From the NCBI RefSeq assembly GCF_000026545.1, contig NC_011601.1: a stretch of 64,000 nucleotides of DNA; one strand, given 5' to 3'. The DNA comes from Escherichia coli O127:H6 str. E2348/69. Lineage in GTDB: Bacteria; Pseudomonadota; Gammaproteobacteria; Enterobacterales; Enterobacteriaceae. Made by a program: the position numbers and the translations under genes. Of this stretch, positions 1-63,980 are shown piece after piece. Position 1 is the stretch's first letter. Each line of letters opens with the position of its first letter. Under the pieces are notes generated by a model. It was given only the letters and a program-made list of their open reading frames with translations, ran no database searches and had not been told where the DNA came from.

Positions 1-342
1 TCTGTTGGGCTATTGACCTTACGTTTCTGGCTACGTTATCAGAAGCATCCACAGGCATTTGCTCGCTGGACGCGCATCGTGCCGCCGGTTGTCGATACGC
101 TGTTATTGTTAAGCGGCATTGCGTTGATGGCTAAAGCGCACATCCTGCCATTTTCCGGGCAGGCACAGTGGCTGACTGAAAAGCTGTTTGGAGTTATCAT
201 TTATATCGTTTTGGGTTTTATTGCACTCGATTATCGTCGTATGCACAGTCAGCAGGCGCGCATTATTGCCTTCCCGCTGGCGTTGGTGGTTCTGTACATC
301 ATCATTAAACTCGCCACCACAAAAGTACCGTTACTGGGGTAA
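1..342 (+). CDS. sirB2: SirB2/YchQ-family inner membrane protein, 5' end truncated by window edge
   Basis: ORF is open to position 1 in frame; hydrophobic membrane protein; sits upstream of sirB1-kdsA as in E. coli. Confidence 0.6.
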   Translation, partial: SVGLLTLRFWLRYQKHPQAFARWTRIVPPVVDTLLLLSGIALMAKAHILPFSGQAQWLTEKLFGVIIYIVLGFIALDYRRMHSQQARIIAFPLALVVLYIIIKLATTKVPLLG

Positions 343-345
343 GTC

Positions 346-1155
346 ATGAGATCGTTAGCTGATTTCGAATTTAATAAAGCGCCATTGTGCGAAGGCATGA
401 TCCTGGCTTGCGAAGCAATCCGCCGCGATTTTCCCTCGCAAGATGTTTACGACGAACTGGAGCGTCTCGTTAGTCTGGCGAAGGAAGAAATTAGCCAGCT
501 TCTGCCATTAGAAGAGCAGCTAGAAAAATTAATCGCGCTGTTTTACGGCGAATGGGGGTTTAAAGCCTCACGCGGCGTTTATCGTCTTTCCGATGCATTA
601 TGGCTGGACCAGGTGTTAAAGAATCGACAGGGCAGTGCGGTATCATTAGGTGCGGTTTTATTATGGGTCGCGAATCGTCTCGATTTGCCGCTGCTGCCGG
701 TGATTTTCCCTACGCAGCTGATATTGCGCATTGAGTGTCCGGATGGCGAAATTTGGCTGATTAATCCTTTTAACGGTGAATCGTTAAGCGAACATATGCT
801 GGATGTGTGGTTAAAGGGAAATATCAGCCCGTCGGCGGAACTGTTTTATGAAGACCTTGATGAAGCTGATAACATTGAGGTAATCCGCAAATTGCTGGAT
901 ACACTCAAAGCTTCGTTGATGGAAGAAAATCAGATGGAGCTGGCGTTACGCACCAGCGAAGCTTTATTACAATTCAACCCGGAAGATCCCTATGAAATTC
1001 GCGATCGCGGGTTGATTTATGCGCAACTGGATTGCGAACACGTTGCGTTGAACGATTTAAGTTATTTCGTTGAACAGTGTCCGGAAGACCCGATCAGCGA
1101 AATGATCCGTGCGCAAATAAATAACATCGCGCATAAACATATTGTGCTGCATTAA
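346..1155 (+). CDS. sirB1: SirB1/YchA-family protein (transglutaminase-like/TPR)
   Basis: 269 aa ORF, conserved position immediately upstream of kdsA. Confidence 0.75.
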   Translation: MRSLADFEFNKAPLCEGMILACEAIRRDFPSQDVYDELERLVSLAKEEISQLLPLEEQLEKLIALFYGEWGFKASRGVYRLSDALWLDQVLKNRQGSAVSLGAVLLWVANRLDLPLLPVIFPTQLILRIECPDGEIWLINPFNGESLSEHMLDVWLKGNISPSAELFYEDLDEADNIEVIRKLLDTLKASLMEENQMELALRTSEALLQFNPEDPYEIRDRGLIYAQLDCEHVALNDLSYFVEQCPEDPISEMIRAQINNIAHKHIVLH

Positions 1156-1181: not shown

Positions 1182-2045
<864 letters not shown>

Positions 2046-2065
2046 TCTTTTTTGCCTGAAAAATA

Positions 2066-2096
2066 AAGTCTTAGCGTTCTGCGTTAAGACTTTTTT
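2066..2096 (+). terminator. Rho-independent terminator of kdsA
   Basis: Inverted repeat AAGTCTTA...TAAGACTT followed by TTTTTT. Confidence 0.65.
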
Positions 2097-2193
2097 CATG
2101 GGTGCCGGATACAAAAAAGGCCGCAGGCTGTTACCCCTGCGGCCGGTTTCGGGCGCATATTGCCATCACGGCAGCCTGACGCCCGTTTTCACC

Positions 2194-2301
2194 TTACTTC
2201 CGGTTACGCCACCAGCCGACAATCGCTGCGGTAATAATTCCCGCAAGGATCGGTGCTGCCAGGTCGTGCCAGAAAGTCATGGCAAACTGCGCGAGCGTCA
2301 T
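2194..2301 (-). CDS. ldrA: Ldr-family type I toxin peptide (35 aa)
   Basis: Minus-strand translation gives MTLAQFAMTFWHDLAAPILAGIITAAIVGWWRNRK, matching the Ldr toxin family; a cognate Rdl antisense RNA is expected nearby but not mapped. Confidence 0.8.
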   Translation of the reverse strand: MTLAQFAMTFWHDLAAPILAGIITAAIVGWWRNRK

Positions 2302-2705
2302 ATAGCCGCCTTGTTGTAATGACAACATTTTGCGGCTATTCTTGAATTGTTCTGGTTCAAGATTAGCCCCCGTTCTGTTGTCAGGTTATACCTCTCAACG
2401 TGCGGGGGTTTTCTCTTTCCAGCAACCAATGCCACCAGGGATAAAGCCCCCGCAACATTGCGCCTCACCGGATAACGCCGGCTTGGTGTGGATACTACGT
2501 CGCAATTCATCTTCACTTCATCCCTGAAATGTTTGCAACAAAGGGTACATTCCGGCTTTTCAACAGCTGTTACAGTCGTTTCGTGCAGGTTGTGGTACAG
2601 GCTTGCAATTCTGATTAACAACCTGTCCAGCTAGTATGAAGAAATATAATAAGCAGGAATTTATATTATCTCCCCCGATTTCCGTCATCGGAGGAGATAT
2701 AACTG

Positions 2706-3806
2706 TCAGGCAAATATCGTCATCAAATAGGCGGCAAACAGTGCCAGATGCGCTGCGCCATTGAGCACGTTAGTTCGTCCGGTGGAGAAGGAGATATGGC
2801 ACAGTACTAAAGAGGCCACCATCACCACCATTTCTGGCGCACCAAGTGCAAACTGCAATTCGTTACCCGTCATAAAGGCAATTAGCGTGACGACAGGTAC
2901 GGTAAGCGAAATGGTTGCCAACACTGAACCAAAGAACAGATTCATCGCGCGCTGGACCTGGTTATTCAACACTGCTTTTAACGCACCTAAACCTTCCGGC
3001 GACAGAATCAACAGAGCCACCAGGAAGCCAGTAAAGGCGACAGGCGCATTCATGCTGTCGAGCAATGTCTCCAGCGGGCTGGCGTTCATTTTGGTGACTG
3101 CAATAACGGCAATCAGATGGACAATCAACCAGATGGCATGCCACAGGCTGCTATGGGCAGACGGTTTACCGTGGTGCGGGTCGTCATCATCACTGTCATC
3201 TTCGTGCTCGTAGACAAACAAACTTTGATGTGTTTTGGTCTGGATCAGCAAAAATACGCCATACATTGCCGCAGAAATTAATGCTACCAGTAACGCCTGA
3301 CCTGTTGAAAAATTCGCTGCAGGCAGAGCCATTGGAAATACCAGTACGATTATCGCCAGGGGGAACAGCGCAATTAAATACTGCTTGATACCAAACAGAT
3401 TCATATATTGGGTGGCAAACTTACGTCCGCCCAACAATAATGAAAAGCCAACCAGCCCACCTGTAACAATCATAATGATTGAATAGAGCGTATCACGCAT
3501 TAGCGTTGGCGCGGCGTCGCCGGTTGCCATTAAAGCTGAAATCAAACTGACTTCAAGAATAACCACTGAAAGGCTAAGAATAAGCGAACCGTAAGGTTCT
3601 CCCAGGCGATGGGCTAATACGTCCGCATGACGGACAACACTAAAGGCGCTACTTAAAATACCAATAAGCGCAAGAAGATTGATGGCAATGACCACTGGTA
3701 GTGTCTGGCTGCTTCCCCACAGGAACAGCACTACCAGCGCCAGAACCGGGAAAATAAGCGAAGTCTCCTTGTGGCGGGTTTTTACCGCCTCTTGAGCATT
3801 TGACAT
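2706..3806 (-). CDS. chaA: Ca2+/H+ (Na+/H+) antiporter
   Basis: 366 aa polytopic membrane protein with acidic loop, conserved context with chaBC. Confidence 0.95.
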   Translation of the reverse strand: MSNAQEAVKTRHKETSLIFPVLALVVLFLWGSSQTLPVVIAINLLALIGILSSAFSVVRHADVLAHRLGEPYGSLILSLSVVILEVSLISALMATGDAAPTLMRDTLYSIIMIVTGGLVGFSLLLGGRKFATQYMNLFGIKQYLIALFPLAIIVLVFPMALPAANFSTGQALLVALISAAMYGVFLLIQTKTHQSLFVYEHEDDSDDDDPHHGKPSAHSSLWHAIWLIVHLIAVIAVTKMNASPLETLLDSMNAPVAFTGFLVALLILSPEGLGALKAVLNNQVQRAMNLFFGSVLATISLTVPVVTLIAFMTGNELQFALGAPEMVVMVASLVLCHISFSTGRTNVLNGAAHLALFAAYLMTIFA

Positions 3807-16976: not shown

Positions 16977-17683
16977 TCGAACTCGTGATTGTATCGCGTC
17001 TCCTTGAATATCCGGATGCTGCCTTATGGCAGCATCAACAAGAGATGTTTGAGGCGATTGCCGCGTCGAAAAATCTGCCAAAAGAGGATGCCCATGCGCT
17101 GGGCATTTTCCTGCGCGATTTAACGACGATGGATCCGCTCGATGCCCAGGCGCAGTACAGCGAACTGTTCGACCGTGGCCGCGCCACGTCACTGTTGCTA
17201 TTTGAACATGTTCACGGTGAATCCCGTGACCGCGGCCAGGCGATGGTGGATCTGCTGGCGCAGTACGAGCAGCACGGCTTGCAGTTAAACAGCCGCGAAT
17301 TGCCCGACCATCTGCCGCTGTATCTGGAGTATCTGGCGCAGCTGCCGCAAAGCGAAGCCGTGGAGGGTTTGAAAGATATTGCGCCGATTCTGGCATTGCT
17401 GAGCGCGCGTCTGCAACAGCGTGAAAGCCGTTATGCCGTGCTGTTTGATCTGCTGCTGAAACTGGCGAATACCGCAATCGACAGCGACAAAGTGGCGGAA
17501 AAAATTGCCGATGAAGCGCGCGACGATACGCCGCAGGCGCTGGATGCAGTCTGGGAAGAAGAGCAGGTTAAATTCTTTGCTGAAAAAGGCTGCGGTGATT
17601 CAGCAATCACTGCTCATCAGCGTCGCTTTGCCGGTGCCGTCGCGCCGCAATATCTGAATATCACCACCGGAGGACAGCACTAA
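16973..17683 (+). CDS. narJ: Nitrate reductase assembly chaperone NarJ
   Basis: 236 aa, operon position. Confidence 0.95.
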
Positions 17684-18360
17684 TGCAATTCCTGAATATG
17701 TTCTTCTTTGATATCTACCCGTACATAGCCGGGGCGGTCTTCCTGATTGGTAGCTGGCTGCGTTATGACTACGGGCAGTACACATGGCGTGCGGCGTCCA
17801 GCCAGATGCTGGATCGCAAAGGGATGAACCTCGCGTCGAACCTGTTCCATATCGGTATTCTGGGGATTTTTGTCGGTCACTTCTTCGGTATGCTGACGCC
17901 GCACTGGATGTATGAAGCTTGGCTGCCGATTGAAGTGAAACAGAAAATGGCGATGTTTGCTGGTGGTGCCAGCGGCGTACTGTGTCTGATTGGCGGCGTG
18001 CTGTTGTTGAAACGTCGTCTGTTCAGCCCACGCGTGCGTGCAACGACTACCGGAGCGGATATCCTGATCCTGTCGCTACTCGTTATCCAGTGCGCGCTGG
18101 GCCTGCTGACCATTCCGTTCTCTGCTCAGCATATGGACGGTAGCGAGATGATGAAACTGGTTGGCTGGGCGCAGTCGGTAGTGACCTTCCACGGTGGCGC
18201 TTCTCAACATCTTGATGGCGTGGCGTTTATCTTCCGTCTGCACCTGGTGTTGGGGATGACGTTATTCCTGCTGTTCCCTTTCTCGCGTCTGGTACACATC
18301 TGGAGCGTCCCGGTGGAGTATCTGACGCGTAAGTATCAGCTGGTGCGCGCTCGTCACTAA
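17683..18360 (+). CDS. narI: Respiratory nitrate reductase 1 gamma subunit (cytochrome b)
   Basis: 225 aa membrane haem protein, operon position. Confidence 0.95.
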
Positions 18361-18471
18361 TTATCTAAACCAAACATCGGCGGTTACACACTGCCGATTT
18401 TTCGGATTGTAGGGAAACGTACTTCATCTATATGATTGGTCCACCTATGGAGCAGTGAAGGAGCACTGACC

Positions 18472-19479
18472 GTGGCTCGACCTAATCAACCGACGATCTC
18501 CGCGGCGTTAAAAATAATCGCCACGGGGATCGCCTTACCCCCTGATCAAATCACTTCTCAACAACTGGATGTTCAGTTAAGTAAGCCAGTTGGCTATGTT
18601 GAGCGACGTTCCGGTATTTGCTGGCGCTATTTTGCCCGCAATGACGCCAGCCAGGCCGAACTGGCGGCAGAGGCTTTACATAATGCGTTAGTAGCGGCAG
18701 CCTTAAATCCTTCTGATATTAATCTGCTAATTTGTGCATCGGCCATTGCCGTACAGGCATTACCCTGTAGCGCAATTCATATTCTTAAAGCCGCAGGCAT
18801 GCCCGCAGGCGTTGCCGGGTTTGATATCAACAGTAGCTGTGTGAGCTTTATTTCCGCTCTTGAAGTCGCTGCCGGATTATTAAACTGTGGAGCATATCGG
18901 CGCATTGCCATCGTTTCGGCAGATATTGCTTCACGCGGTATCGACTGGGATCATGAAGAGTCTTCATTAATTTTTGGTGATGGCGCGGCGTGCGCGATTG
19001 TTGAGCGGGGCGATGGGCGCAGCGGGATTATCGCTAGCCTGATCGAAATGTATCCCGAAGGCAGCGAACTGTGTGAAATACGCGCCGGCGGTACGCGGCG
19101 TAATCCTCGTTCTGGTGTGAGTGACAGCGACTTTCTTTTTCATATGCAGGGGAAACCGCTGTTTCGTTTTGCTTCTTCGCTTATTGAAGATTATTTTTCT
19201 CGGTTGCTGCAAAAAAGCAGTCTGCAACTGGATGATATCGGCACGGTCGTTCCACATCAGGCCAGTCATCTTTCCCTTGAACATATGCGTAAACGGCTGC
19301 GAGTGCCGGAATCTGCGCTCATCGATGTGTATCGTTTTTACGGCAATCAGGTCGCGGCCTCTATCCCCACGGCGCTGCATGAAGCGGTGATTAGCGGTCG
19401 TTTCACAGCGGATAAACCTGTAATGTTGATTGGCACGGCAGCGGGACTAACGCTGGCTGGCATGGTGCTTTTACCGTGA
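18472..19479 (+). CDS. FabH-like beta-ketoacyl-ACP synthase III family condensing enzyme
   Basis: Cys-His-Asn triad motifs in context (INSSCVSF, VVPHQAS, YGNQVAASIP); start placed at GTG 18472 after AAGGAG (ORF opens at 18436). Confidence 0.75.
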   Translation: MARPNQPTISAALKIIATGIALPPDQITSQQLDVQLSKPVGYVERRSGICWRYFARNDASQAELAAEALHNALVAAALNPSDINLLICASAIAVQALPCSAIHILKAAGMPAGVAGFDINSSCVSFISALEVAAGLLNCGAYRRIAIVSADIASRGIDWDHEESSLIFGDGAACAIVERGDGRSGIIASLIEMYPEGSELCEIRAGGTRRNPRSGVSDSDFLFHMQGKPLFRFASSLIEDYFSRLLQKSSLQLDDIGTVVPHQASHLSLEHMRKRLRVPESALIDVYRFYGNQVAASIPTALHEAVISGRFTADKPVMLIGTAAGLTLAGMVLLP

Positions 19480-20492
19480 AGATCCTCGTAACAGGGGCGA
19501 CCAGCGGCCTTGGGCGAAATGCCGTGCAATATTTGTTGCAATCGGGTGAGTCGGTTGTGGCAACAGGGCGAAATTGTGAGGTTGGCAGAAGCCTGACAAA
19601 CGCAGGCGCACAGTTTGTGGCTCTCGATTTAACCGAGGCAACCGAGGATGACTGCGCCCGCCTGATGGACGGCTGCGATGCCGTCTGGCACTGTGCGGCA
19701 AAGTCCTCGCCCTGGGGCGACAAAACGGCGTTCTGGCTTGCCAATGTCAAAGTGACCCACACTCTGGCACAGGCGGCAGGCAGGCTGAATATTCCCCGGT
19801 TTATCCATATCTCCACGCCTGCGGTTTACTTTGATTTTCAACATCACAATGACCTGCCAGAAACGTATCTTGCGCGAGCATTCTCCAGCCATTATGCCAG
19901 CAGTAAATATGCCGCTGAGCAGGTTATTGCTGGCGCTGTTTCTCGATATTCTGCCACGAGATTTATTCTTTTGCGTCCCCGTGGTTTGTTTGGCCCCCAT
20001 GACCAGGTAATTGTTCCTCGTCTGATGCAGCAATTGCAACAGGGCGGTGGTTGCTTACGTTTGCCGCGCGGGGGCGACGCGTTATTGGATCTCACGTTCG
20101 TGCAAAACGTGGTGTATGCCATGCGGCTGGCAACGAACGTTGAAGGCTTACGCTCGGGCAGTATTTACAACATCAGCAATCACCAGCCGCAGCAGCTATC
20201 GGTGATGCTTGACGCCTTGCTGCACCAGCAACTGGGCTTGAGTTACCGCATTGCTGCTGTTCCCTGGTCGCTGCTTTCTCTGGTCGCGCGTGGCCTGGAA
20301 CTGTACGGGAAGTGCGTTAATCAGGAACCTGTTATCACACGATACAGCGCCGGAACACTCTGTTTCGATATGACGCTGAGTGCGCAAAAGGCCATTACAG
20401 AGCTGGGATATCGCCCGCGCTTTTCGATGGAACAAGGTATTGCAATCACGGGACAATGGCTGAGGGAACATGGCAAAAATAACCGCATTTGA
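19476..20492 (+). CDS. NAD(P)-dependent epimerase/dehydratase (extended SDR) family protein
   Basis: N-terminal Rossmann motif ILVTGATSGLG and YASSK catalytic motif; GTG start overlaps upstream stop. Confidence 0.75.
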   Translation: MKILVTGATSGLGRNAVQYLLQSGESVVATGRNCEVGRSLTNAGAQFVALDLTEATEDDCARLMDGCDAVWHCAAKSSPWGDKTAFWLANVKVTHTLAQAAGRLNIPRFIHISTPAVYFDFQHHNDLPETYLARAFSSHYASSKYAAEQVIAGAVSRYSATRFILLRPRGLFGPHDQVIVPRLMQQLQQGGGCLRLPRGGDALLDLTFVQNVVYAMRLATNVEGLRSGSIYNISNHQPQQLSVMLDALLHQQLGLSYRIAAVPWSLLSLVARGLELYGKCVNQEPVITRYSAGTLCFDMTLSAQKAITELGYRPRFSMEQGIAITGQWLREHGKNNRI

Positions 20493-21276
20493 AACGGGCT
20501 GGTGTACCCATATTAGCTGTATTGCGCTGAAAGGGGCAGGGCTGAAAGTGTGCAAATTCCCCGCCCGCGCCTGGCTGCTGGAGGTGGGCGACAAACGGTG
20601 GCTGTGGGACACAGGCTATTCATCGTGGTTCGAACACTACACGCAATCTGGTGTGTTTCGTCTTTATCGTCAGGTCACGCCGGTTTATTTCGATCCGCAA
20701 CAGGCGCTGGTGCGGCAACTTTCTGCCACCGGCCTCGCAGCGAAAGATGTTGATGCGATTATTCTGTCGCATTTTCACGCTGATCATATTGCTGGTCTGC
20801 GTGATTTTCCTGATGTTTCCTGCATCTGTTCTGGTGAAGGCTGGCGGCAAGTAAGAACTCTGCGTGGTGTCACTGCGCTGCGCCAGGCCTTTGTGCCAGG
20901 GCTAATCCCGGAGAATTTTGACTCCTCACCGCGCTTTATTGAAAGTTTCGCATCGGTGAATTTGCCCGCGCAACTGGCACCGTTTGAGTGCGGCTATTTG
21001 CTGCCAGAAAGCAATGGCGAAATTATTCTCGTGCCGCTTCCCGGACATGCTGCCGGACATATTGGCGCGTTTGTGTTAACCGACAACGGCTGGACTTTAC
21101 TGGCTGGCGATGCGGCATGGGCGCCAGCTAACTACCGGGAGCTGCGAGGGCCTTCACCACTGGCGCATCTGGTTATGTCCGACAGCCACGCCTACTACCA
21201 CACGCTTGGGCAACTCCATCAGCTTTGGCAAAACGGTGTAGTGGAGATTCGTTTGTGCCATGAGGGGGATTTATGA
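20470..21276 (+). CDS. MBL-fold metallo-hydrolase
   Basis: HxHxDH motif (ILSHFHADHIAGL). Confidence 0.75.
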   Translation: MAKITAFETGWCTHISCIALKGAGLKVCKFPARAWLLEVGDKRWLWDTGYSSWFEHYTQSGVFRLYRQVTPVYFDPQQALVRQLSATGLAAKDVDAIILSHFHADHIAGLRDFPDVSCICSGEGWRQVRTLRGVTALRQAFVPGLIPENFDSSPRFIESFASVNLPAQLAPFECGYLLPESNGEIILVPLPGHAAGHIGAFVLTDNGWTLLAGDAAWAPANYRELRGPSPLAHLVMSDSHAYYHTLGQLHQLWQNGVVEIRLCHEGDL

Positions 21277-22559
21277 TCCCGTTGGCTTTACTCTGGCGCT
21301 ACTTTCGTACCCGCAAGCTGCATTTCACCGATCGCGAGGCACTGGAAAACTGGCAGGCAAAAAGGCTGCATCAGTTCCGGCAAAATGTCTTATCTCATAG
21401 CCCGTGGTTTCAGCGTTATCTGACGTTGCCCTTTAATCAGTGGCCAATGATGGATAAAGCGTTAATGATGACGCACTTCGATGAGATGAATACCGCAGGT
21501 TTAAAGCGCGACGAACTTCTCGATTGTGCAATGCGCAGTGAGCAGAGTCGTGATTTCAAACCCTGCGTTGGCAGGTTCAGTGTTGGGCTTTCATCAGGTA
21601 CATCGGGTCGTCGTGGGCTTTTTGTTGTTAGCCCGCACGAGCAACAGATGTGGGCCGCCGGTGTGCTGGCAAAAGTGTTGCCCGACGGTTTATTTGCCAA
21701 AGAGCGGGTGGCGCTGTTTCTGCGCGCGGACAACAACCTGTATCAAAGCGTGAATAATCGCTGGTTAAGTCTCGATTTTTACGATCTGCTAGCGCCATTT
21801 CAGGCGCAACTCAAACTTCTCCAACAGCGAGCGCCCACGATTATTGTCGCGCCAGCTCAGGTATTACGCGCACTGGCGCTGGAGGTGATGGCCGGCGAAT
21901 TGACGCTAAAGGTCAAAAAAGTGATTTCGGTGGCGGAAGTTCTGGAGCCGCAGGATCGGGAATTACTGCGCAACGTGTTCCACAATGTGGGGGAAATTTA
22001 TCAGGCGACAGAAGGCTTTCTCGCTTCCACCTGCCGGTGTGGAACGTTACATCTCAACGAAGAGTTTGTTCACATTGAACCGCAATGGCTGGATGAGCAC
22101 CGTTTCGTGCCGATCGTCACAGACTTTACCCGCACCACACAGCCGATAGTGCGTTATCGACTGGATGATGTGCTGGTGGCAAGCGAACAACCATGCTCCT
22201 GTGGCAGTGCAACAATGGCGATTGCGCGTATCGAAGGGCGGCAGGATGACCAACTGCAACTACCAACAAGATCCGGCGATATTCAGACCGTTTTTGCCGA
22301 TGCCTGTAGTCGTGTGCTGGCAATGACACTGCCGCTAACAGTCGATTATCGCCTGCTACAAACCGGGTCAGCACAATTGACGTTAATCGCCGATTGCGAG
22401 CTGTGGATGCTGGAGCATTGCCGGGAGGCGTTGAATGCCTTGTTTATACGCCAGGATATCGCTGTCGGGCAATTAATTTGGTCGCTGGAACCGCAAACTG
22501 TGCCAGTCTCTTTTACAGCCAAGCGGCGGCGCATTGTGCGTCAGTGGGGGCGGGAATGA
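21273..22559 (+). CDS. Adenylate-forming enzyme, F390-synthetase/PaaK-like acyl-CoA ligase family
   Basis: SSGTSGRRG phosphate-binding loop typical of PaaK-type adenylating enzymes; overlaps upstream stop. Confidence 0.65.
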   Translation: MIPLALLWRYFRTRKLHFTDREALENWQAKRLHQFRQNVLSHSPWFQRYLTLPFNQWPMMDKALMMTHFDEMNTAGLKRDELLDCAMRSEQSRDFKPCVGRFSVGLSSGTSGRRGLFVVSPHEQQMWAAGVLAKVLPDGLFAKERVALFLRADNNLYQSVNNRWLSLDFYDLLAPFQAQLKLLQQRAPTIIVAPAQVLRALALEVMAGELTLKVKKVISVAEVLEPQDRELLRNVFHNVGEIYQATEGFLASTCRCGTLHLNEEFVHIEPQWLDEHRFVPIVTDFTRTTQPIVRYRLDDVLVASEQPCSCGSATMAIARIEGRQDDQLQLPTRSGDIQTVFADACSRVLAMTLPLTVDYRLLQTGSAQLTLIADCELWMLEHCREALNALFIRQDIAVGQLIWSLEPQTVPVSFTAKRRRIVRQWGRE

Positions 22560-23158
22560 GCAATTCACTGCTACGCCTGAAACAGATGCTGCTGGGCTGG
22601 GGAACTGTTGGGGTTATCTACAACTTTAGCGACTACCTGCAAGGTGAGGGATATCAATTAACACCGTCAATAATTGATAATTGGATTTCGTTTTCCCCCT
22701 CCGCTGTGTGGCTGTATCTCTCGTTTTTTTTCATTGTGCCGTTAGGTTATTTATCCACGCCACTTTGCCACCTGCGCTGGCTGGCCCGTTCAATGCAAAT
22801 TTCCGCACTGGTGGCAGGCGTATTTTATCTTCTCTGGCCCACAACCATGCATTATCCCTCGTTTGATCAGATGGGGATATCCGCGGGCGCACTCAACAGG
22901 CTGATCGCCATTGACTCAAGCCAGAACTGTTTCCCCTCCTTACACGCCGCGCTAACGCTGTTGGCGGTATGGGCGATTGCCAAAAAGGGGAACCGTTGGC
23001 TGACGCTAATGAGCGTGGTCTGGGCGATAGCAATCGCCTTTTCGATTCTGCAATTACGCAGACATTTATTTATCGATTTAGTAGGCGGCGCGTTGCTGGC
23101 GTCGATTTGCGGTTGGATATGCGCAACATGCGAGAAAAGGAAGACACAATATGAGTGA
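22556..23158 (+). CDS. PAP2-family membrane phosphatase-like protein
   Basis: ATG 22556 overlaps upstream stop (ATGA); PSLH and R..H..D motifs in hydrophobic context (ORF opens at 22394). Confidence 0.6.
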   Translation: MSNSLLRLKQMLLGWGTVGVIYNFSDYLQGEGYQLTPSIIDNWISFSPSAVWLYLSFFFIVPLGYLSTPLCHLRWLARSMQISALVAGVFYLLWPTTMHYPSFDQMGISAGALNRLIAIDSSQNCFPSLHAALTLLAVWAIAKKGNRWLTLMSVVWAIAIAFSILQLRRHLFIDLVGGALLASICGWICATCEKRKTQYE

Positions 23159-24275
23159 TTTATTATTCCCCATCATATCGATGGTACTGTTGGTGTTAGC
23201 CGAAGCAGGCGTGTTGCAATTCACCGGGCGGCAAAAAGTGGACTGGCTGGACGTTATTTTTAATATCAACTCCGGTCATATGATGCTGTGGTTATTTCGC
23301 TGCCTGGAAGTGCTCTGCTATGGACTGGTGATCAATCACTTCAGCCTTGGACTGTTTGATAATGCACCGGTGATCCTGCTGTGGTTGTTTACTATCCTGG
23401 CGTGGGATTTCGGCTTTTACTGGCTACATCGCTGGCATCACGAAATGCGCCCGCTGTGGGCGGTACATGTGGTGCATCATCAGGGGGAACACTACAACCT
23501 GTCATTAGGCGTGCGGAATTCGTGGTACTCCTCGTTAACCTCAATCCCGTTTTTTATGCTGCTGGCGATGCTTGGTGTGCCGTTGCAGATCTTTTTGGCG
23601 GTTTCTATTATTCACTATAGTTGGCAATTTTTTAACCATAACGCACTAACGCCGAAACTGGGCTGGCTGGAAAAAGTGCTGATCACGCCTTCGCATCATC
23701 GCGTCCATCATCTGAATCAAAAGCAATATGCCGATACCAATTACGGTGGCACCTTTTTGTTGTGGGATAAACTTTTCGGTTCGTATAGTGCCGGGCCGGA
23801 ATACGACGTAGGCTACGGCGTAAAAAATAGTCGCTTGTCCTGTAACCCGATGCGCGAGAGTAATCTGCCATTTTTACGCTTAATGGGCTTTCGCTCATTT
23901 GGCAAAGCGATTGAAGGTCGCTACCAGAGTTCTCCATGGGCGGTAGGGGCAGGGGTGATCCTGCTGTTTATGCTGGTGCTTGGCTACATTCAACAATATG
24001 GCTATGGCATTGAGTTTATTACCAGCGAGCAAGCCGTATTATTTGTTCTGCTGGCGGCAGGCTCCGTTGCGCTGGGGGGCATGAGCGACGGGCAGCATTG
24101 GGGTATGATTTTGTGGTGCTCTGTGACGTTGTCACTGCTCTATTTTATTGTCTATATGTGTTCATGGAGTACTCTGCTCTGGAAGGGATTAGTGGGTATT
24201 CTGCTGGCCCATTGCCTGTTATTTGTAATCGGCGTAGGACGTAAATCGCTAAGGAAACAGTATGAACCTGTTTAA
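23151..24275 (+). CDS. Fatty acid hydroxylase/sterol desaturase superfamily membrane protein
   Basis: Histidine boxes HRWHH, HVVHH, HHRVHH in polytopic membrane protein. Confidence 0.7.
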   Translation: MSDLLFPIISMVLLVLAEAGVLQFTGRQKVDWLDVIFNINSGHMMLWLFRCLEVLCYGLVINHFSLGLFDNAPVILLWLFTILAWDFGFYWLHRWHHEMRPLWAVHVVHHQGEHYNLSLGVRNSWYSSLTSIPFFMLLAMLGVPLQIFLAVSIIHYSWQFFNHNALTPKLGWLEKVLITPSHHRVHHLNQKQYADTNYGGTFLLWDKLFGSYSAGPEYDVGYGVKNSRLSCNPMRESNLPFLRLMGFRSFGKAIEGRYQSSPWAVGAGVILLFMLVLGYIQQYGYGIEFITSEQAVLFVLLAAGSVALGGMSDGQHWGMILWCSVTLSLLYFIVYMCSWSTLLWKGLVGILLAHCLLFVIGVGRKSLRKQYEPV

Positions 24276-25353
24276 TCCCGACAGGTTAATCACTTTTCCT
24301 GCCGATGATCCGCAACTGGTGAAGCAGCTGCAAAGCGGTACGAAAGTTTATCTGGCGAAATCAGGCGATCATCGGTATGCCGACGGCTGGGCATTCGCCA
24401 AAATGGCGGCGTTGATTATTGCTTGTTTCTCCTGTTACTTACTGGCGTTGTTTCAACGTCAATGGGGACTGTATCTGTTGTGGTATCTCGCGATGATGTT
24501 TTGCGCCATGTTGTTAGCGGTCAATGTGGTGCATGACGCTTCGCATGATGCGTTTTTGCGTGGTAAAAAGACCAATGCCCGACTTAACCGGTGGGTTGCT
24601 TTTCCTATGGGGCTAGATCCGGACTGCTGGCGGGTGCGCCACGTTCGCTTTCATCACGGCTTTACCAATATTGAATTTTACGATCCGGACACCGCAGAAA
24701 ATGGCATTCTTCGCCAGACGCCGTGGCAACGGTGGCGACCTTTTATGCGCCAGCAACATCGCTATTGGCCACTGGTCGCCGCGCTCACCTTTCCCTGGTA
24801 TATCTGGGTAGTGGACTGGCTCGATCGCGCAGGGTTTACGCCGGTCACGCGACATCTGGCCCTGCGAGGCTTTGCTGGCTGGGGATATTTCTTAGCCGGG
24901 AAACTGGCGCATTGTGCGCTGTGTCTGATACTTCCCTGGCTTTTGTCTGATTTTAGTTTTATGACCATCCTGCTGACTTATCTGCTCAGCCAGCTGCTGG
25001 CGTCATTGATTTTTGTGACGTTGATTATTGGAACGCACTGGGCGAAGGGACATACGCAGTTACCACCAGAAGAGGGCAAAATGCCCGTGGGCAGACTGGC
25101 GCATACCTTTGTTACCACCTTTGACTGGACGCCGCAACCTGCATGGCTTGGCTACTGGCTGGGCGGGATTAATCTGCACCTTACCCATCATCTGTTTCCT
25201 CACTGGCATCATCGCCATTATCCGGCGCTAAGCCGCATTATTGCACAAATTGCCAGCCAGCAAGGTCTGGATTATCAGTTGTTGACGTTAGCGGATTTGT
25301 TGAGGCTACAGCAGCAGTTTTTACGGCAAATGGGGGAGAAGCCGAAGGCTTGA
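24262..25353 (+). CDS. Membrane fatty-acid desaturase family protein
   Basis: Histidine boxes HDASHD, HVRFHH, HHLFPHWHH. Confidence 0.7.
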   Translation: MNLFNPDRLITFPADDPQLVKQLQSGTKVYLAKSGDHRYADGWAFAKMAALIIACFSCYLLALFQRQWGLYLLWYLAMMFCAMLLAVNVVHDASHDAFLRGKKTNARLNRWVAFPMGLDPDCWRVRHVRFHHGFTNIEFYDPDTAENGILRQTPWQRWRPFMRQQHRYWPLVAALTFPWYIWVVDWLDRAGFTPVTRHLALRGFAGWGYFLAGKLAHCALCLILPWLLSDFSFMTILLTYLLSQLLASLIFVTLIIGTHWAKGHTQLPPEEGKMPVGRLAHTFVTTFDWTPQPAWLGYWLGGINLHLTHHLFPHWHHRHYPALSRIIAQIASQQGLDYQLLTLADLLRLQQQFLRQMGEKPKA

Positions 25354-25369
25354 TAATGGAATCAAGTGA

Positions 25370-25454
<85 letters not shown>

Positions 25455-56010: not shown

Positions 56011-56063
56011 CGGCGGCAGAGCAGTCACGGAGTAAAACTGATACCGCCAAACGTCACCAGAAA
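56011..56063 (-). ncRNA. dicF: DicF small RNA (ftsZ translation inhibitor)
   Basis: Minus strand reads TTTCTGGTGACGTTTGGCGGTATCAGTTTTACTCCGTGACTGCTCTGCCGCCG then a T-run, matching recalled DicF. Confidence 0.85.
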
Positions 56064-63478: not shown

Positions 63479-63824
63479 TAACACTTCCTTAATTTTCCCT
63501 TAACAATTTAGGGTGCTAAACTTTTTTGCGCAGTTTACATAAAAAAATAGTGCGTACGCAAAAACTATCTAACATGATGAGCTTTAACCGGGAAATTTGT
63601 ATATGTTGTGAGCATAAAGTTGGCTGAGAAATCTAAAACGGGTAGAATGACTGCGGGTGCTTGAGGCTATCTGTCTCAGGCATGAACACCAAAAGGCAGA
63701 TAGAGAAAAGCCCCAGTTAACATTACGCGTCCGGCAAGACGCTTAACATTAATCTGAGGCCATATCTATGCTCTACACACGTAGGTTAGCCTCTTACGTG
63801 CCGAAAGGCAAGGAGAAGCAGGCT

Positions 63825-63980
63825 ATGAAGCAGCAAAAGGCGATGTTAATCGCCCTGATCGTCATCTGTTTAACCGTCATAATGACGGCACTGGTAACGA
63901 GGAAAGACCTCTGCGAGGTACGAATCCGAACCGGCCAGACGGAGGTCGCTGTCTTCACAGCTTACGAACCTGAGGAGTAA
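63825..63980 (+). CDS. hokD: Hok/Gef-family type I toxin (HokD/RelF-like)
   Basis: 51 aa MKQQKAMLIALIVICLTVIMTALVTRKDLCEVRIRTGQTEVAVFTAYEPEE; in-frame upstream extension from 63768 (mok-like). Confidence 0.9.
   Translation: MKQQKAMLIALIVICLTVIMTALVTRKDLCEVRIRTGQTEVAVFTAYEPEE

Follow-up and report, generated by a model that had tools for sequence, protein, structure and literature searches.

Among type I toxin-antitoxin modules of the Ldr/Rdl kind, the experimentally characterised member is ldrD/rdlD of Escherichia coli K-12, which lies between bcsG and yhjV (Kawano et al., 2002, cited in PMC4147584). The structure of the LDR, the toxicity of LdrD, its repression by RdlD and the proposal of a leader ORF named ldrX are all covered in PMC4147584. 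According to the same source, RdlD of K-12 is the sole case in which an Rdl has been shown to be expressed, to be unstable and to repress Ldr synthesis, and in ldrD/rdlD an Rdl that lies opposite the 5′ UTR, not over the ribosome-binding site (RBS), prevents toxicity (Kawano et al., 2002). It also credits Gerdes and Wagner with the proposal, yet to be confirmed, of a hok/mok-like coupling via ldrX. The mode of action of Rdl is described as unproven even in K-12 (PMC4147584). The likeness to hok/sok proposed there is that the toxin mRNA is structured and stable, that the antisense RNA directed at its 5′ region is short and unstable and that, as the possible equivalent of the mok leader, ldr would have a leader ORF coupled to toxin translation (PMC4147584). 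The hok/sok system differs from the module described below in that its toxin (Hok, ~50 aa) and its RNA belong to unrelated families.

Toxicity upon overproduction has been reported for LdrA and LdrD, and the cytoplasmic membrane was the location found for LdrA (PMC7472228); LdrB is described as a cytotoxic toxin in PMC6678987. Fozo et al. (2010, PMC2887945) listed variable Ldr counts over Escherichia and Shigella and inferred an old duplication into an LdrB group and an LdrD group, followed by lineage-specific duplications and losses. The Ldr/Fst signature of a hydrophobic helix, a tryptophan and a charged C-terminus is described in the same work (PMC2887945). A one-unit state at the kdsA-chaA locus is already known: in NRG857c (AIEC), a single Ldr (Ldr-1) was reported from the chaA-kdsA interval, which lacked two of the K-12 systems (Bustamante and Vidal, 2020, PMC7232551). 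It was guessed in that report to be a sequencing or assembly error (PMC7232551). Here we describe the corresponding locus of E. coli O127:H6 str. E2348/69 within a stretch of 64,000 nucleotides of contig NC_011601.1 (hereafter the window). Its allele is of the same class as Ldr-1 of NRG857c, with a single Ldr where K-12 has three.

Results

The kdsA-chaA locus of E2348/69 holds one LDR unit

The locus is bounded on the left by kdsA (3-deoxy-8-phosphooctulonate synthase; 1191–2045, plus strand; a 284-aa ORF) and on the right by chaA (Na+/K+:H+ antiporter; 2706–3806, minus strand; a 366-aa ORF), both annotated under these names in the E2348/69 record. Between the end of kdsA at 2045 and the end of the minus-strand chaA at 2706, the spacer measures exactly 660 bp. 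The earlier note on this DNA had seen a 35-aa Ldr-type ORF standing alone in a spacer of roughly this length, and that is what we found, with the ORF at 2194–2301 (minus strand). An inverted repeat (I1) at 2062–2096 (plus strand), with 15-nt arms followed by TTTTTT, is probably the intrinsic terminator of kdsA. It is followed by a single LDR repeat unit at 2111–2582 (minus strand; spacer positions 66–537), which is 96.5–97.4% identical to units A, B and C of K-12, and by a chaA-proximal unique part at 2583–2705, homologous to positions 1607–1729 of the K-12 spacer. The 5′ coding sequence of ldr matched once in the 64-kb window (at most 3 mismatches; 0 expected by chance), the Rfam rdlD model likewise gave one match in the whole window, and no direct repeats were found in 1900–2900. 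The locus occupies the position of an LDR tandem array, between kdsA and chaA, with one unit in place of the array's at least two head-to-tail units of ~535 bp; it is a one-unit allele of the LDR array locus. Over positions 1800–2950, three separate O127:H6 chromosome assemblies, E2348/69 among them, matched the window at 100% identity.

The same interval of K-12 MG1655 contains ldrA/rdlA, ldrB/rdlB and ldrC/rdlC, and the K-12 annotation thereby confirms the three tandem units that the earlier note had given for it. The K-12 spacer is 1729 bp long with a period of 535 bp. Spacer positions 1–537 of the window aligned to positions 1–537 of the K-12 spacer at 97.4% identity, while window positions 66–660 aligned to K-12 positions 1136–1729 at 96.5%. 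Aligned in this way, the window spacer is shorter by 1069 bp (1729 − 660), the length of two 535-bp units; the window is K-12 minus two units. Flanking genes, orientation and unit anatomy are shared with the K-12 LDR-A/B/C array at 96.5–97.4% nucleotide identity and with an LdrB peptide that is identical, whereas the window differs in having one unit against three, 660 bp against 1729 bp, and in being without the ~64-bp inter-unit linker. The window unit combines bases diagnostic of units A, B and C in a mosaic, as expected if units recombine and exchange sequence.

Species-representative genomes were also scanned with a conserved 22-nt UTR pattern, which yielded six stretches and added two relatives from beyond typical E. 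coli. In the first, a divergent genome labelled E. coli E69, the kdsA-chaA interval holds one unit (kdsA 96% and chaA 89% identical to the window); in the second, Escherichia sp. E1V33, it holds two. One unit may be the ancestral state, with two- and three-unit arrays, that of K-12 included, being later amplifications and the lineage of the window having undergone no loss. The single unit of the divergent E69 genome favors this history, as does a loose alignment between the K-12 linker and the unique sequence next to chaA, which would fit duplication of a single unit along with its flank. The two units of E1V33, however, point the other way, and with two relatives outside typical E. coli and arrays that expand and contract easily, parsimony is weak. 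We regard an ancestral single unit as a serious candidate, though slightly less probable than its converse.

A second tandem-copy difference from K-12 was noted elsewhere in the window. Positions 18436–25454, between a narI-like ORF (17683–18360) and a single tRNA-Tyr gene (25370–25454, minus strand) that adjoins a purU-like ORF, hold about seven same-strand ORFs, including a fatty-acid hydroxylase (23151–24275) and a fatty-acid desaturase (24262–25353). The corresponding K-12 interval contains ychS, rttR/tpr and a tandem pair of tRNA-Tyr genes (tyrV, tyrT), so the window differs both in tRNA-Tyr copy number and by an island of ~7 kb. At the far end of the window, full-length Rfam matches to DicF RNA (56011–56062, minus strand; 72.5 bits) and to the sok antitoxin RNA (63655–63830, plus strand; 117 bits) suggest a prophage-like region with a hok/sok module.

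E2348/69 carries two D-type units at yhjV-bcsG

In K-12, ldrD stands alone between yhjV and bcsG; in E2348/69 this interval holds a tandem pair of D-type ldr genes, and a full Rdl accompanies each of them. In the E2348/69 stretch examined at this locus (L005, 14242–15628), the D-type period is 483 bp and the units are followed by a match to STnc490 RNA and by an IS200C transposase. E2348/69 has 1 + 2 units in total and K-12 has 3 + 1; these two additional copies elsewhere in the genome largely undercut the strain-level difference that the earlier note had drawn from the lone unit. Among 5426 complete E. coli genomes, 3305 contained the D-type inter-unit junction (6997 junctions), and nearly all of the 24,222 Ldr-unit matches in this collection fell at the two loci. 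Tandem arrays are the majority state at yhjV-bcsG, and the single ldrD of K-12 is the minority state.

Like the window unit, ldrD/rdlD of K-12 combines a 35-aa toxin, a long 5′ UTR and a 66-nt cis-antisense RNA upstream of the RBS, and the two share the conserved UTR block and leader ORF described below. Unlike the window unit, it belongs to the paralogous group at the other locus, with 20 of 35 amino acids identical and ~80% nucleotide identity over the unit. A 503-bp, low-coverage contig assigned to Bacillus sp. EB106-08-02-XG196 was 96–98% identical to the E. coli D-type LDR unit and almost certainly entered that assembly through contamination with E. coli. Beside the D-type LDR of E2348/69, between dppF and yhjV (L005, 10966–12592), we also noted genes for an HTH protein, a HipA N-terminal domain protein and a HipA-family toxin; this split hipBA-like type II module is absent from the dppF-yhjV interval of K-12.

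The kdsA-chaA and bcsG-yhjV loci are roughly opposite each other on the chromosome, and their copy numbers might be non-independent, tuned jointly or by lineage, as in 3 + 1 versus 1 + 2. If this were true, selection would act on total Ldr/Rdl dosage, making it a phylogroup-specific trait with an effect on stress tolerance or persistence. The counts given here are marginal totals for each locus. In small samples, 1–4 Ldr copies lay outside kdsA-chaA in single-copy and multi-copy genomes alike, a pattern that does not suggest compensation, and we consider joint tuning improbable.

The window unit retains the parts of an ldr/rdl module

The ldr toxin ORF (2194–2301, minus strand; 35 aa plus stop) translates to MTLAQFAMTFWHDLAAPILAGIITAAIVGWWRNRK and is annotated in E2348/69 as the Ldr family toxin WP_000170963.1. 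Residues 1–35 aligned to positions 1–35 of the Pfam profile PF13940 (Ldr_toxin) at 91.6 bits (cut-off 27; E = 3e-26); an NCBIfam search with the 35-aa peptide returned no family at E ≤ 0.01. In amino acids, the window Ldr is the same as K-12 LdrB and two residues away from LdrA and LdrC, and it displays the Ldr/Fst signature in the form of a hydrophobic helix, a conserved tryptophan and a C-terminal charged cluster (...LAAPILAGIITAAIVGWWRNRK). The ORF could be lengthened to 44 aa by starting from an in-frame ATG further upstream, at 2328, but we did not accept this start; D-type units have ACG in its place, and a 1-nt insertion there shifts it out of frame.

A search for the Rdl antisense RNA, which the earlier note had proposed, returned a full-length match to Rfam RF01813 (rdlD) at 2349–2414 on the plus strand, complementary to the 5′ UTR of the ldr mRNA (87.0 bits, gathering score 50, E = 5e-17; model positions 1–66 of 66). 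All four K-12 Rdl genes scored 86–92 bits by the same Rfam test, and the antitoxin RNA of the window, which is one loop base apart from RdlA, scored as well as RdlA. Its predicted fold is a stem-loop with a U-tail (−26.7 kcal/mol, z = −5.3). The RNA lies in cis to the ldr ATG (2301, minus strand) across a 47-nt gap that leaves the RBS and start codon clear, a placement that is the same as in the K-12 layout. A putative Rdl promoter (TTGTAA, 17 nt, TATTCT) was read at 2314–2342 (plus strand), 7 nt upstream of the Rfam 5′ end of Rdl, and overlaps the ribosome-binding and start region of ldr on the opposite strand.

The ldr strand presents, in order, a putative −10 element, a 5′ UTR block, a 25-aa leader ORF, the Rdl-complementary segment (2414–2349), the Shine-Dalgarno-like AAGG, the 35-aa ORF and a terminator. 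The putative −10 element, TAGTAT at 2482–2487 (minus strand), was picked out by alignment of seven units; its counterpart in D-type units is TAGAAT in two of three and TAAAAT in the third. Because a sigma-70 consensus scan of 2000–2760 called no promoter for either ldr or Rdl, we grade both promoters as putative, with spacing and conservation pointing to their positions. The 5′ UTR block is nearly invariant over the seven A/B/C-type and D-type units and is more conserved than the coding region. The leader ORF (2381–2458, minus strand; 25 aa, MLRGLYPWWHWLLERENPRTLRGIT) lies in this 5′ UTR, its 3′ third overlapping the Rdl target, and its start and stop are kept in 6 of the 7 units, D-type included. 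This conserved ORF is a candidate for ldrX. Another possible coupled leader, an ORF with its stop codon overlapping the ldr ATG (ATGA), was rejected; in D-type units its frame is closed or startless. The one unit with a broken leader ORF is unit C of K-12 (L001, 3239–3749), where the conserved 5′ UTR block has lost 1 nt, which shifts the frame; if the 25-aa ORF is the proposed ldrX, ldrC of K-12 may be under different regulation.

Downstream of the toxin ORF, the intrinsic terminator of the ldr mRNA (2112–2144, minus strand; inverted repeat I2) is made up of a GGCCGCAGG stem, an 8-nt loop and a T-run, with the stem-loop at 2144–2119. The terminator scan gave nine pairs, eight of them G-C, and the tail TTTTTTGTAT, and this terminator is conserved in all seven units compared. 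The predicted ldr transcript (2475–2112, ~364 nt) is strongly structured (−162.5 kcal/mol, z = −7.5).

Inactivated type I loci are known from chromosomes, for example copies of hok in K-12 (PMC2887945), and the lone unit of the window might similarly be a decaying, non-functional remnant. Against this, the ORF is intact and LdrB-identical, the Rdl scores on a par with RdlA, the terminator, 5′ UTR block and leader ORF are all conserved, and neither an IS element nor a frameshift is present. We consider decay highly improbable. Since every published part is intact, we take the window unit to work like ldrD/rdlD.

A single unit is common among complete E. coli genomes

In the same collection of complete genomes, one contiguous unit at kdsA-chaA was found in 1325 of 5426 (24.4%), and the K-12 inter-unit junction, which marks at least two units, in 4052 of 5426 (74.7%). 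The junction query spanned 100 bp and matches only where two units abut; it matched 6288 junctions, or 1.55 on average in each positive genome. By subtraction, 49 genomes showed neither the single-unit nor the junction state. A 60-row sample spread down the junction ranking comprised 33 genomes with one junction and 27 with two. Copy number at the locus is roughly one in 24% of genomes, two in ~35–40%, three in ~35% and more, up to seven, in a few percent.

Flank identity in the single-unit genomes ranged from 95.9% to 100%, and these genomes included EC958 and the Nissle-derived SYNB1934. We take E2348/69, EC958, the Nissle derivative and NRG857c to be phylogroup B2 strains, and these four strains suggest that the single-copy state may be linked to phylogroup B2. 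A literature search combining ldrA, type I toxin-antitoxin and phylogroup found nothing. The earlier note had described the copy number as a strain-level difference. The difference from K-12 stands as real, but the level does not: it is a widespread, lineage-level polymorphism carried by 1325 of 5426 genomes, and a state shared by 24% of complete E. coli is too common to be a peculiarity of one strain.

The same counts bear on the guess that a single Ldr reflects misassembly, with two or three 535-bp units collapsed into one. Units that are ~97% identical could be merged by short-read assemblers, and this possibility was raised for NRG857c (PMC7232551). However, the 660-bp spacer is identical in the three separate O127:H6 assemblies, 1325 complete-level genomes show the same state, and arrays of two or three units are resolved in thousands of other complete genomes of the same collection. 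The divergent E69 genome also has one unit, and a collapse confined to one related strain group, across many sequencing technologies, is implausible. While an error was suspected behind the NRG857c state, that of the window recurs across 1325 complete genomes and is shared by three O127:H6 assemblies; these population counts and agreeing assemblies make an assembly artefact very unlikely. A recent deletion private to E2348/69, which the difference of exactly two units from K-12 would fit, is untenable because of the population frequency, the arrangement being present in 24% of complete E. coli, including strains far removed from E2348/69, down to 95.9% query identity (such as EC958 and SYNB1934), and in NRG857c too.

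Discussion

We are highly confident that the LDR-A/B/C locus of the window is occupied by a single, intact type I toxin-antitoxin module, ldr/rdl, as the one-unit allele of a copy-variable tandem array. Transcription on the minus strand would yield a structured mRNA of ~360 nt that starts from a promoter near 2480, ends at the terminator (2144–2112) and encodes Ldr, a 35-aa membrane toxin; the 66-nt Rdl RNA would be transcribed on the plus strand, inside the region of the ldr 5′ UTR. The analogy with ldrD/rdlD and hok/sok suggests that Rdl would pair with the ldr 5′ UTR and block translation of the toxin, possibly by way of a coupled leader ORF. Copy number would shift through unequal homologous recombination between the ~97%-identical 535-bp units.

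With respect to earlier work the clarification is modest: the single-copy state that was suspected as an assembly error in 2020 is a real, frequent allele, and the copy-number difference from K-12 is real, common and lineage-wide. Annotators working on type I toxin-antitoxin systems and designers of ldr knock-outs should expect 1 + 2 units, not 3 + 1, in strains near E2348/69. K-12 is a poor reference for the number of Ldr/Rdl modules, and the majority state among complete E. coli is neither three copies at kdsA-chaA nor a single ldrD.
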